Origin: Candidatus Saccharimonadales bacterium
GTDB taxonomy: Bacteria > Patescibacteriota > Saccharimonadia > Saccharimonadales > JAXHNE01
Assembly (NCBI GenBank): GCA_041600755.1
Contig: JBFIJL010000001.1
Location: 1 to 54,797, forward strand
Direction: 5' to 3'
DNA: 54,797 nt
This document shows positions 360 through 3,084 of this stretch, in pieces (position 1 is the first letter of the stretch; each line of letters begins with the position of its first letter). The notes under the pieces were generated by a model. The model saw only the letters and a list, made by a program, of their open reading frames with translations, did no database searches and was not told where the DNA came from. A program made the position numbers and the translations under genes.

Positions 360-572
360 GACCGACTTTTATACTGGTGGGGATGAAAGGACTTGACTAG
401 CTTTTTCCCTCGTCAACCTGGCATGCGCCAGGCTCGGTCACCGCTTCGCTCCAAATGATTCCTCAAACTGCCCCCGGCAGTTCTCGCCTCCGGTTCAAGT
501 CCCGAACATTTACACAGTATAAAAGCCGGCCCTTAGACCGACTTTTATACTGGTGGGGATGAAAGGACTTGA
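360..572 (-). repeat. 37-bp direct repeat (360-396 = 536-572, period 176 bp) of tRNA-Leu(CAG) 3' end plus half terminator, flanking structured element (397-501)
   Basis: Exact match gaccgacttttatactggtggggatgaaaggacttga at both positions. Confidence 0.95.
517..550 (-). terminator. Intrinsic terminator after tRNA-Leu(CAG)
   Basis: Minus strand GTATAAAAGTCGGTC-TAAG-GGCCGGCTTTTATAC hairpin with G-U pairs. Confidence 0.75.
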
Positions 573-636
573 ACCTTCACGAGCAATGCTCACTACGTCC
601 TGAACGTAGCGCGTCTACCAATTCCGCCACATCCCC
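551..636 (-). tRNA. tRNA-Leu(CAG)
   Basis: Reverse complement GGGGATGTGGCGGAATTGGTAGACGCGCTACG-TTCAGGA-CGTAG..., long variable arm, GGTTCAAGTCC T-arm, ends ACCA. Confidence 0.97.
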
Positions 637-646
637 AGGGATTTTA

Positions 647-675
647 ATTGTAGAGAAGCACTGGTTATATGTCTA
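647..675 (-). promoter_or_regulatory. Sigma70-like promoter of tRNA-Leu(CAG)
   Basis: TAGACA (675-670), 17 bp spacer, TACAAT (652-647). Confidence 0.6.
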
Positions 676-1002
676 GCGTCGCTTTTTTGCACTTTTTTTG
701 GATTTTGAAAACGGCTTTTTACCATGATGCTTTTCATATCTATCAACAAAAGACGTTATTCCTCTTATAGCTACAAACACCCAAAGCACATTGAGCACCA
801 TCGATATGTACGCTTCGGTATGAAACTCATGAAAGCCCAACAAGGCAGCACCCACAAGGTTGTCGAGCTCATACCATAAAGAGCGCGTCGACCATTGTCC
901 GATTTGGATTCTATAAAAGCCAAAGACAATAAGCGCCACTCCAACAATACCAATAGCGTCTATAACCTGAATGCCTAAAACTGTATTTGCTAACATCGCC
1001 AA
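673..1002 (-). CDS. Small membrane protein, CBU_0592-like family
   Basis: Three hydrophobic segments; pattern IGIVGVALIV..Y..Q.G.W...SL.Y...NLVGA.LL...LN.LW. Start is TTG 1002 or ATG 996. Confidence 0.7.
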   Translation of the reverse strand: MAMLANTVLGIQVIDAIGIVGVALIVFGFYRIQIGQWSTRSLWYELDNLVGAALLGFHEFHTEAYISMVLNVLWVFVAIRGITSFVDRYEKHHGKKPFSKSKKSAKKRR

Positions 1003-1007
1003 ATCAC

Positions 1008-2645
1008 CTAACTTCGCGGCATGTGATCATAGAGATGATCCATAGAATACTCATTGCGAAGCAACGGCTTGATGTCTTCTATTTTTACATCCATTTTTAC
1101 GCCAGGATTTAGAATGCCGTAAGGGTCAAACGCCTTTTTCACCTTTTGGAACATTCCATAAATTTCTTGGCCGTACATCTTCTCCAGGTAAGGGGCACGC
1201 AAGCGTCCGTCACTGTGCTCACCACTAGTGCTGCCCCCAAGTTCGATTACCATTGAATAATACTCATCAATAATCTTAAAGACCTTTTGCCGATCACCGA
1301 CTTGACTAAGGTCCATAAATGGCTGCATGTGAAGATTAGCATTCCCGGCATGACCCCAAAGGGCTGCGCGCAGATTATACTTCTTGAACATTGCATAAAC
1401 TCTATCGATATACAGCTGGAATTTATCAACTGGCACAATACCATCTTCGATTATTGGCAGAGCCTTGGTATTGCCTTCAGAGTGAGAAATAATTGCAGCC
1501 GCCCCATGTCGAATCTTCCACAAATCTTCACGCTTCTCTGGATCAGTTTCTTCCTGGTATGGAACCTGGTACTTATCCAGGATTTTCTTGGCTTTTTTCG
1601 CCATGCGCTTTTGTGTGCGATCACTGGCGTTGTCGAACTCAATTAACATCACGAGTTTGCTAAATGGTGGATCCATCAAGCCTTTAAGCTGGTTCGGGTT
1701 GTGCTCGTGAATAAACTTCAGAAGATTCTCGTCTACCATCTCCATAGCACTTGGCATTTCTGGAAGCTCACGCAGTTCCATTACTACCTGCTCTGCAACC
1801 TGTAAGTCATCAAACTTGGCCACAAGTAACGTCTCGTTTGGATTATGAAACTCTGTCTCAATTGTTCCTTCAGTCACGATTCCAAGCGTTCCTTGAGATC
1901 CAACAAGCAGCGGCGTGAGATCAAATGTGCCATCCTTGCGTTTTACTTCTCCAAGCGCATAGCCAGCAGAGTTCTTGGTCACAGCCAGCACATTATGTTC
2001 TATGAGCTTCTTGTTCTCCTCAATAAGAGTATCGAGTGTACGGTAGATCTCCCCCTCAAAGCTTGCAAGTCCGAGCTTTTTATTTAGTTCTCGCTTGCTT
2101 AGTCGTCGAGTTTCAATTACTTCGCCGTTGGCCAGAACCACTCGAAGGCTTCTAACATAATTACGTGTACTGCCATACTTCACAGTCTTTTCCCCACCGG
2201 CATTATTGGCAATTGCGCCGCCAATGCTAGAAAATTCAATCGATGAAGGGAATGGAGGCAAGAAACGATTGTGTGTATGTAGTGTTTGCTGAAGCTTTGA
2301 ATAAATCAGTCCTGGCTCCACAGTAATAACACCAGTTTTACCGTCGAATTCAAGGATTTTGTTCATGTGGGCCGGAAAAACCAACATAATTCCATCGCCT
2401 AGAGCACCGCCTGCCTGGTCTGTTCCTTTGCCACGTGCGGTGATTGGCACAACCTTTCCTCTTTCTGCCAGCTGCCACGAAAAACGAGCAGCCTTCCGTA
2501 CGTCATTTTCTCCACGTGGATACACCACGATGTCTGGTGTGAGCTGGAACACGCTTCCGTCGGTCGAAAAATATTCTCGAACGTCTTTTGCTGTCGTTAC
2601 TTCACCACGTAAATGTTCTTGCAAATAGTGTGCAACTTTATTCAT
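1008..2645 (-). CDS. FAD-binding oxidoreductase (GlcD/D-2-hydroxyacid dehydrogenase-like, FAD_binding_4 + FAD-oxidase_C)
   Basis: RGKGTDQAGG, SIGGAIANNAGG, GSQGTLGIVT, HAGNANLH, SGEHSDG and DPYGILNPG motifs. Confidence 0.9.
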   Translation of the reverse strand: MNKVAHYLQEHLRGEVTTAKDVREYFSTDGSVFQLTPDIVVYPRGENDVRKAARFSWQLAERGKVVPITARGKGTDQAGGALGDGIMLVFPAHMNKILEFDGKTGVITVEPGLIYSKLQQTLHTHNRFLPPFPSSIEFSSIGGAIANNAGGEKTVKYGSTRNYVRSLRVVLANGEVIETRRLSKRELNKKLGLASFEGEIYRTLDTLIEENKKLIEHNVLAVTKNSAGYALGEVKRKDGTFDLTPLLVGSQGTLGIVTEGTIETEFHNPNETLLVAKFDDLQVAEQVVMELRELPEMPSAMEMVDENLLKFIHEHNPNQLKGLMDPPFSKLVMLIEFDNASDRTQKRMAKKAKKILDKYQVPYQEETDPEKREDLWKIRHGAAAIISHSEGNTKALPIIEDGIVPVDKFQLYIDRVYAMFKKYNLRAALWGHAGNANLHMQPFMDLSQVGDRQKVFKIIDEYYSMVIELGGSTSGEHSDGRLRAPYLEKMYGQEIYGMFQKVKKAFDPYGILNPGVKMDVKIEDIKPLLRNEYSMDHLYDHMPRS

Positions 2646-2733
2646 GAATAATAACCCTCATTAAACCATTAGCATATCTGTCATATGATAGCACAACCGC
2701 TCTGACATATGCAGCCCGAAAGTACATTGCTAC

Positions 2734-2762
2734 TTGAGATTTTTAGCAAAAAATCGTATCAT
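2734..2762 (+). promoter_or_regulatory. Sigma70 promoter of tRNA-Leu(GAG)
   Basis: TTGAGA (2734-2739), 17 bp spacer, TATCAT (2757-2762). Confidence 0.65.
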
Positions 2763-2789
2763 AGCCTGGTTACGTTACCAAAAACACTT

Positions 2790-2876
2790 GCGCGAGTGGC
2801 GGAATTGGTAGACGCGCTACCTTGAGGGGGTAGTGGGAGCAATCCTGTGGAGGTTCAAGTCCTCTCTCGCGCACCA
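2790..2876 (+). tRNA. tRNA-Leu(GAG)
   Basis: GCGCGAGTGGCGGAATTGGTAGACGCGCTACC-TTGAGGG-GGTAG...GGAGGTTCAAGTCCTCTCTCGCGCACCA forms a cloverleaf with long variable arm. Confidence 0.97.
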
Positions 2877-3084
2877 ATTTAAGAAGGTCCTTCGGGGCCT
2901 TTTTAAATTGACGCTGTAATAGACTTGAACCGGAGGCGAGAACTGCAGGGGGCAGTTTGAGGAATCATTTGGAGCGAAGCGGTGACCGAGCCTGGCGCAT
3001 GCCAGGTTGTCGAGGGAAAAAACTAGTCAAGTCCTCTCTCGCGCACCAATTTAAGAAGGTCCTTCGGGGCCTTTTTAAATTGAC
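2855..3084 (+). repeat. 58-bp direct repeat (2855-2912 = 3027-3084, period 172 bp) of tRNA-Leu(GAG) 3' end plus full terminator, flanking structured element (2922-3026)
   Basis: Exact match tcaagtcctctctcgcgcaccaatttaagaaggtccttcggggcctttttaaattgac. The body is the reverse complement of 397-501 with 3 mismatches. Confidence 0.95.
2877..2908 (+). terminator. Intrinsic terminator after tRNA-Leu(GAG) (second copy 3049-3080)
   Basis: ATTTAAGAAGGTCC-TTCG-GGGCCTTTTTAAAT hairpin with UUCG loop. Confidence 0.85.

Follow-up and report, generated by a model that had tools for sequence, protein, structure and literature searches.

Repeats that carry the 3′ end of a transfer RNA (tRNA) behind a tRNA gene have long been known from the tyrT operon of Escherichia coli, and we know of no accepted explanation for these tyrT repeats. 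At the tyrT-tyrV locus of E. coli K-12, the site of the 178-bp repeats, all four units match the Rfam family RtT (RF00391) at 133-137 bits. They are annotated as a small RNA, RttR (rttR), and rttR encodes rtT RNA according to a preprint. An E. coli unit starts with GGGGAAGGAT, an inverted copy of tRNA-Tyr nucleotides 59-68, which is followed by a linker and by AAGGTTCGA, a sense copy (5′ side of the T-stem and start of the T-loop) that runs to nucleotide 57; a core of ~72 nucleotides (nt) with a hairpin of the GCC...GGC type comes next, and then AATCC...CCACCA, nucleotides 58-76. Here we analyse a stretch of 54,797 nt (the window: positions 1 to 54,797 of the forward strand of contig JBFIJL010000001.1, below C1, of assembly GCA_041600755.1) from a Candidatus Saccharimonadales bacterium, in which nearly the same 105-bp body lies behind two different genes, tRNA-Leu(CAG) (body A) and tRNA-Leu(GAG) (body B). 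The best explanation of the two 105-mers is that they are sister copies of one subfamily, S1, in a Saccharimonadales-wide family of gene-less structured modules. The comparisons establish securely a discrete, structured non-coding unit, always tied to a tRNA copy from T-loop to CCA, that varies between close relatives and has multiplied within genomes.

Alignment of 397-501 with 3026-2922 by blastn covered 105 of 105 positions at 97.1% identity (E = 6e-46), with three mismatches between bodies A and B, at 476/2947, 413/3010 and 401/3022 (window positions). A preceding sequence-only reading had described 397-501 as the reverse complement of 2922-3026 with three mismatches, and the 102 of 105 identical positions bear this out. 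As it had also held, both bodies have the same orientation relative to their tRNA, lying downstream of a tRNA-Leu and on its strand (ARAGORN, Rfam), and their surroundings are unlike each other: the acceptor arms differ (GGGGATG/CATCCCC in the CAG gene, GCGCGAG/CTCGCGC in the GAG gene), and the proximal hairpins at the two loci, the terminators, show no sequence likeness. On the left, the likeness of A and B sets in precisely with GACTTGAACC, after unrelated sequence; to the right it extends only into T-loop letters common to both tRNAs, TCAAGTCCT. Directly after each body, the 22 nt at the 3′ end of its own tRNA are repeated without change, at Leu(CAG) as part of a perfect 37-nt repeat (360-396 = 536-572) and at Leu(GAG) as part of a 72-nt repeat (3027-3098 = 2855-2926; 94% identity), whose first 58 nt are perfect and whose last 14 nt hold four differences. 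Together the two loci form a 133-nt inverted repeat of 92% identity, 2.4 kb apart.

A sharp-ended, nearly identical stretch in unrelated flanks agrees with the earlier proposal that a discrete unit recently moved, or was converted, between tRNA genes, and speaks, as that proposal did, against a local tandem duplication. The state of the tRNA-Leu(GAG) locus in congeners points the same way. In congener G002 the site is empty, consisting of the tRNA, one terminator and the downstream flank that in the window follows 3027-3098; in congener G003 it holds a body of another subfamily (S5-like), a tail copy and a different terminator. The proximal terminator of G003 is similar to the one terminator that the empty G002 site has, which fits insertion downstream of a terminator and equally a cassette that carried a captured G002-like terminator.

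The assembly (807 kb in six contigs, 44.5% G+C, 40 tRNA genes) is a metagenome-assembled genome (MAG) of the Saccharimonadales (TM7), of 97.7% completeness. A search of the whole genome with the last 18 nt of each tRNA, allowing two mismatches, returned 22 distinct orphan tails from 19 of the 40 tRNAs, where by our own estimate about one such match is expected by chance. All 22 follow their own tRNA downstream on its strand, at distances from 14 nt to 10 kb and mostly 120-170 nt; four of them (Pro, Asn, Glu and Gly(GCC)) are separated from the tRNA by 4.6-10 kb of other DNA, and two units in series are found at tRNA-Arg(GCG) and at tRNA-Asn. This placement excludes the randomly scattered repeat against which the sequence-only reading had weighed its proposal, a repetitive extragenic palindrome (REP) or miniature inverted-repeat transposable element (MITE); such an identity was also rejected because all copies lie behind tRNA genes and the duplications, of 22-72 nt, have a fixed left end in the T-loop.

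Most orphan tails belong to units of one common design. Read in tRNA orientation, the intact tRNA is followed by a terminator and a short spacer, an inverted T-arm copy of approximately nucleotides 51-63 (in Leu, GGACTTGAACC), a loop of 3-4 nt, GG or GGT (tRNA nucleotides 52-54), a structured core of 90-130 nt, tRNA nucleotides 55-76 ending in CCA, and a second terminator. The core thus always sits at position 54/55 of a partial tRNA copy, and pairing of the inverted T-arm copy with the first nucleotides of the tail copy could form a helix, P1. The inverted copy tracks the local T-loop, reading GAGTCGA for the unusual TTCGACT of tRNA-Arg(CCT) and GGATTTGA for the TTCAAAT of tRNA-Arg(GCG). Over 42 units it matches its own tail at 5.9 of 9 positions and other tails at 5.3 of 9, a margin that is small because T-loops are alike and that none of 2000 permutations reached. 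Every tail copy has its own well-formed terminator, and a terminator directly precedes every body. In young units the duplication is perfect from nucleotide 55 through the whole terminator, over 58 nt at Val(TAC) and likewise at Leu(GAG), 64 nt at Ser(GGA) and 65 nt at Leu(CAA), and microhomology at the left junction amounts to 0-5 nt (for example GACTT at Leu(GAG) and GGGA at Leu(CAA)). Other, older units have a perfect tail beside a wholly different, well-formed terminator, as fits cassettes exchanged between genomes with the same tRNA and a different terminator.

This is the design of RtT. The Rfam consensus structure closes the E. coli unit by the same helix of inverted copy and tail as P1, the length is 178 nt in E. 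coli and 172-180 nt here, and in both cases the units stand behind their cognate tRNA, co-oriented, single or in tandem. They differ in that, at the K-12 locus examined, E. coli has units at no other place than the tyrT-tyrV operon, and a terminator hairpin in front of them was not seen, whereas here at least six subfamilies occur at 19 of 40 tRNAs, each behind a terminator. S1 and E. coli RtT have an exact 11-mer in common (GGAGCGAAGCG), and the S1 model scores 12.6 bits on one E. coli unit. Local alignment to E. coli RtT gave p ~0.04 for one unit and no significance for another, so that any sequence homology of S1 to it is weak or not significant; the Rfam RtT model (gathering score 45 bits) found no match at E <= 10 in 1-3600 or 2900-3055. 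The module is therefore built like RtT but is not a demonstrated member of the RtT family.

Body subfamilies number at least six: S1 (the 105-mer), S2 and S5 (with GTTTTCCTTGCTTGGCC in common), a Val type, a Ser/Leu(CAA) type and an Arg(TCG)/second Asn-unit type. A long hairpin with the tip GCC-NGT-GGC, hp1, is common to S1, S2, S5 and the Val type, and its stem is conserved in pairing and variable in sequence: 43 stems comprise 26 different sequences, in which 97% of 344 positions are paired (shuffles, mean 70%, maximum 76%), and all four Watson-Crick pair types occur at the middle positions. Thirteen G-U against two A-C pairs among these sequences indicate that the structure is selected on the tRNA-sense strand. 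For seven S1 members RNAalifold recovered P1, hp1 and a further helix that encloses a variable third hairpin, with 11 pairs showing compensatory changes; the 10-12 nt that adjoin the junction vary and the distal hairpins are conserved. The units, with bodies of 105-134 nt, contain no open reading frame, and the bodies find no counterpart among the Rfam families at E <= 10 in the window positions 1-3600 and 2900-3055. We also considered a split or intron-containing tRNA and rejected it: an intact tRNA stands beside every unit in this genome, intact genes serve all 20 amino acids, none of 59 family members elsewhere is a sole copy with the 5′ half joined directly to core and tail, and no Rfam intron family matches.

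This genome has S1 four times, at the two tRNA-Leu genes above and at Met and Arg. The sequence-only reading had asked how many copies of the 105-mer exist and whether each adjoins a T-loop duplication, and all four abut a T-loop-to-CCA copy of the local tRNA. The Met and Arg copies are ~75% identical to the Leu pair and not alignable in their 3′ half. An S1 15-mer (TTTGGAGCGAAGCGG) occurs four times here and not at all in congeners G001-G003, and clear S1 members are sporadic, being found in only a few other families of the order. The S2 17-mer (GTTTTCCTTGCTTGGCC) is far more widespread: among species representatives it matches in ~50 Saccharibacteria/Saccharimonadales MAGs and elsewhere at chance level, which makes the family order-wide. 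In 46 of its 125 matches a tRNA of the same orientation lies no more than 700 nt upstream, usually at 85-100 nt, and 27 matches have a tail copy at no more than two mismatches in 20. Seven matches to this 17-mer in IMG/VR were rejected as phage-borne copies, all seven lacking the hairpin of the family and being attributable to chance. In the literature searched, no account of modules of this kind in Saccharibacteria or Patescibacteria was found.

The most similar core pairs mostly lie within one genome. A second, unrelated MAG, CALFBO01, has two cores of 98-99% identity, at tRNA-Pro(TGG) and tRNA-Met, that differ by one indel over the region common to both and whose inverted copies and tails are locus-specific; the pattern seen at the two Leu loci is thus recurrent, also between tRNAs that have only the T-loop in common. 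Tails elsewhere may be cut off, broken by small nested hairpins, or not derived from the adjacent tRNA. At three loci (L059, L040 and L071) the tail is not that of the tRNA immediately upstream but of another Arg or Leu isoacceptor, and at two of these (L040, L071) neither a terminator nor an inverted copy lies between the upstream tRNA and the unit. At five loci (L047, L057, L064, L096 and L105) hairpin-forming inserts of 15-60 nt, which may be nested small elements, split the tails (T-stem/acceptor) behind S2 cores. At L033 and L077 the S2 core is followed by ...CCCGCCAGCTCCACCA, a typical 3′ end of transfer-messenger RNA (tmRNA), so that the family also occurs behind ssrA.

We suggest that the modules are non-autonomous, selfish mobile DNA cassettes, and that one 105-mer was recently copied from the other or both from a close source, a reading to which we give a probability of roughly 0.45. 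The identity of 102 of 105 positions, the sharp ends, the perfect 58-nt duplication and the states of the site in congeners together make recent copying in this lineage the best reading. Colonisation of a new tRNA would start with illegitimate copying, for which the near-universal T-loop sequence GGTTCRANTCC would be the anchor, and the copying event would re-copy the tRNA from nucleotide 55 to the end of the terminator, so that the tRNA gene would stay intact. Once a unit is present, the intact 5′ part of the tRNA and the 22-nt tail copy could act as two homology arms, through which homologous recombination, for example after DNA uptake, could place tail, terminator, inverted copy and core into genomes with the same tRNA, a step that would need no dedicated recombinase. 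The P1 pairing between inverted T-arm copy and tail copy may stop the tail from disturbing the folding of the real tRNA in read-through transcripts. Copying combined with two-arm recombination would account for the perfect tails beside foreign terminators, the arrays and the absence of a recombinase. Models in which a chimeric RNA is copied back into DNA were rejected, as the genome has no RVT_1 (reverse transcriptase) match.

Several points weigh against this reading. No circular junction or polymorphic read was seen in the DNA run that best matches the window (X1, contigs only), and no enzyme or intermediate was identified; the MAG being 97.7% complete, a plasmid- or phage-borne recombinase may be missing from it. 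Passive copying leaves the order-wide conservation of the core and of the 17-mer unexplained. The inverted T-loop copy fits the local tRNA even between cores that are ~99% identical, where a donor-derived left end predicts otherwise. Furthermore, the duplication at Leu(CAG), of 37 nt, ends inside the terminator, so that no single simple rule covers all units. Finally, both Leu loci would look just as they do if older modules resident there had undergone gene conversion.

This last possibility, in which nothing moved and older, diverged S1 modules at both tRNA-Leu loci were homogenised by ectopic gene conversion that left inverted copy, tail and terminator untouched, is unlikely, if the least so of the alternatives. 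The 133-nt inverted repeat formed by the two loci speaks for it, the clustering of cores by genome is what concerted evolution produces, and CALFBO01 provides locus-specific flanks beside ~99% identical cores. A conversion tract would, however, have to span the whole body and resolve within 9-10 nt of flanking homology, since the identity of A and B reaches the very first and last base of the body, and the other S1 copies are not alignable in the 3′ half. In congeners the Leu(GAG) site is moreover empty or occupied by another subfamily, and its 58-nt duplication in the window has stayed perfect, which together mark the unit there as young.

Integrative elements that cross over in the T-loop, and the cis-mobilisable elements (CIMEs) described as a concept in PMC5704250, come close in another respect: they too leave a direct repeat of the tRNA 3′ end from the T-loop, regenerate the tRNA, accrete in tandem and target tmRNA. 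The units could accordingly be attL-remnant-attR footprints, or cargo-less derivatives, of such elements, mobilisable in trans or in cis, an origin that we regard as doubtful. The direct repeats from the T-loop to CCA or beyond with the tRNA restored, the arrays at tRNA-Arg and tRNA-Asn, the kilobase-sized cargo between tRNA and module at Pro, Asn, Glu and Gly(GCC), and the tmRNA tails are all as expected of them. As in an integrative or cis-mobilisable element, the units are flanked by direct repeats of a tRNA 3′ segment beside an intact tRNA, but neither a cognate integrase in the unit nor an integrase-bearing parent element with the same ends was found. The units (105-134 nt) have neither an integrase nor coding capacity, and their body, with its inverted T-loop copy, is a single-strand structure that covaries. 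At least four tRNAs here share a single body subfamily, an arrangement that a sequence-specific integrase would not allow, and the 10-12 nt by the junction, rather than the distal hairpins, are the part that is not conserved. A T-loop crossover from Leu(CAG) to Leu(GAG) would, in addition, leave a chimeric tRNA, whereas a duplicated local tail is seen.

The genome has a single tyrosine recombinase (one PF00589 match), Xer-like and in conserved synteny, 76-79% identical to homologues at two fetched loci, one of which lies ~1.4 kb from tRNA-Arg(CCT), as here; it is most likely Xer, and no T-loop integrase was found in the genome. One degraded serine recombinase lies in the island at tRNA-Pro. 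The one intact serine recombinase, large (526 amino acids) and on contig C3, overlaps the last 23 nt of tRNA-Gly(GCC), with its last eight codons and stop opposite the tail and the stop in the T-loop. Its island of 8.2 kb (C3:108013-116280) is followed by a terminator, an inverted T-arm copy of 24 nt, a core of 50 nt and a one-mismatch tail, and appears therefore to have been inserted at the 3′ end of the tRNA, ahead of an older unit. No recombinase adjoins the S1 or S2 units in the genome, and tblastn found no homologue of the serine recombinase in 115 loci fetched with the S2 motif, for which reason a link between this enzyme and the S2 modules was rejected. So was the idea that the body is the 3′ end of the serine-recombinase gene, as a simulated circle adds only four codons and the bodies have no similarity to the gene. 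In sum, no enzyme was found in the genome that would explain T-loop-specific insertion of one body type at several tRNAs.

The parallel with E. coli raises the alternative that the units are host RNA genes or precursors of the RtT kind, in which a read-through RNA of body and tail, closed by P1 and ending in CCA, is processed like rtT and kept by selection, the near identity at the Leu loci then reflecting duplication of a useful RNA. We consider this improbable. The design matches the E. coli units, which are an annotated small RNA with an Rfam family, the structure is selected on the tRNA-sense strand, every tail copy has a good terminator of its own, and the tails are perfect even where the terminators differ. 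Against it, no sigma-70-like promoter was found before the bodies, each of the three tRNAs in this part of the window having one, and a terminator directly precedes every body. Units are present, absent or swapped between congeners, and many tails elsewhere are cut off, split by nested hairpins or mismatched to the adjacent tRNA. The window was matched in DNA runs only, metatranscriptome contigs at a related locus cover the tRNA alone and come from other organisms, and the Rfam RtT model found no match.

A more far-reaching proposal is that the modules and E. coli RtT form one widespread class of protein-less, self-propagating structured elements that home, single-stranded, to T-loop position 54/55; we hold it to be a long shot. 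Integron attC and the folded attP of CTX phage are single-stranded recombination sites, in which imperfect inverted repeats ~100 nt apart can fold on one strand, the folded stem recreates a duplex target, sequence is variable and structure conserved, and arrays occur, much as in the units. In contrast to these systems, no IntI-type integrase was found here, and the cargo is a tRNA tail and terminator, not a gene; an integron cassette or attC was rejected as the identity of the units since no IntI lies next to an array and the only PF00589 match is the single Xer-like gene. Under the homing proposal the inverted T-arm copy would be a built-in splint or guide, pairing with the target T-arm on either half and placing the core, and the mirror-image units found upstream of tRNAs in other Saccharibacteria (L075:819-1479; L090, minus strand, ~3875; L078, minus strand, ~2297) would be the other half-product of the reaction. 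Their order is tRNA nucleotides 1-54, an S2 core, nucleotides 55-62, a 2-3-nt loop, the inverted copy, a spacer and the intact tRNA. If homing were true, target-specific mobility would have a new kind of mechanism, and the tyrT repeats would be accounted for.

It is hardly credible that the assembly placed one repeat copy at two loci: the window does start in a repeat, and the end of C3 equals the start of C1, but the copies differ at three positions, the same design recurs in dozens of independent assemblies, and separate Logan contigs of run X1 match without differing letters over 367-443, 446-565, 543-2884 and 2883-2977, spanning most junctions. Among the pieces listed, which are the longest ones, 2978-3054 (the junction of body B and the distal tail) is uncovered, and breaks occur only at repeats; since X1 may be the source sample of the window, this agreement is to be taken as consistency and not as independent support.

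The design of the E. coli tyrT repeats is thus found here as a diversified, apparently mobile family at roughly half the tRNA genes in a minimal epibiont genome, and order-wide, which provides many independent insertions, empty sites and subfamilies from which a mechanism could be worked out. If copying needs no dedicated enzyme, it would illustrate how a selfish element can use a conserved gene segment as its homing address. The modules may shape tRNA transcription units in Patescibacteria. On the practical side, the units break short-read assemblies (the contig studied here begins inside one), and their decoy tRNA 3′ ends could mislead the prediction of attachment sites or islands. The features of the window are collected in Table 1.

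Table 1. Features of the two tRNA-Leu loci and of the neighbouring tRNA-Val unit (window positions).
Feature	Position	Strand	Basis or remark
tRNA-Leu(CAG), intact	551-636	-	ARAGORN; Rfam tRNA 57.4 bits
Tail of tRNA-Leu(CAG), nucleotides 55-76	551-572	-	
Promoter-like site for tRNA-Leu(CAG)	675-647	-	
Proximal terminator hairpin and spacer between tRNA-Leu(CAG) and body A	502-550	-	AAAAGTCGGTC-TAAG-GGCCGGCTTTT, read from sequence
Body A, S1 subfamily	397-501	-	102/105 identical to body B
Inverted T-loop copy of body A (first 10 nt)	492-501	-	GACTTGAACC in tRNA orientation
Hairpin hp1 of body A	465-483	-	
37-nt copy of 536-572	360-396	-	tRNA-Leu(CAG) nucleotides 55-76 at 375-396, and the next 15 nt; 100%
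Promoter-like site for tRNA-Val, directly after 360-396	337-309	-	
tRNA-Leu(GAG), intact	2790-2876	+	ARAGORN; Rfam tRNA 52.3 bits
Tail of tRNA-Leu(GAG)	2855-2876	+	
Promoter-like site for tRNA-Leu(GAG)	2734-2762	+	
Proximal terminator and spacer, tRNA-Leu(GAG)	2877-2921	+	GAAGGTCC-TTCG-GGGCCTTTTT, read from sequence
Body B, S1 subfamily	2922-3026	+	blastn; no Rfam family at E <= 10
Inverted T-loop copy of body B (first 10 nt)	2922-2931	+	
Hairpin hp1 of body B	2940-2958	+	
Copy of 2855-2926	3027-3098	+	tRNA-Leu(GAG) nucleotides 55-76 at 3027-3048, and whole terminator; perfect over 3027-3084
tRNA-Val(TAC), third unit of the same design	205-281 (unit 1-281)	-	Then terminator
Body of the tRNA-Val(TAC) unit, other subfamily, 134 nt	47-180	-	GCC-NGT-GGC hairpin in common with S1, S2
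Tail-plus-terminator copy of the tRNA-Val(TAC) unit	1-46	-	Continues into contig C3

The window begins inside the tRNA-Val(TAC) unit, and its positions 1-133 equal the end of contig C3 (C3:117306-117438), so that C3 and C1 are neighbours and the assembly was broken at the Val-unit repeat. Joining them yields a perfect 58-nt duplication (tail and whole terminator) around a Val-type body of 122 nt. Within body B, a CTGC-loop-GCAG hairpin accounts for a weak Rfam match to RAGATH-30 at 2918-2958 (13 bits against a cut-off of 59.5, E = 2.5), which is most likely due to chance. In CALFBO01, a tRNA-Pro-like copy at L048:4147 has a body in place of the anticodon arm, with the acceptor 5′ strand, D-arm, T-arm and 3′ end present, and lies 2.8 kb from the intact tRNA-Pro, which carries units of its own. 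In the genome studied here, tRNA-Thr(TGT) is followed by two tandem 31-nt mini-units (C2:23041-23102) that have no core and each end in the last 18 nt of the tRNA (ATCCGACAGGTGGCTCCA).

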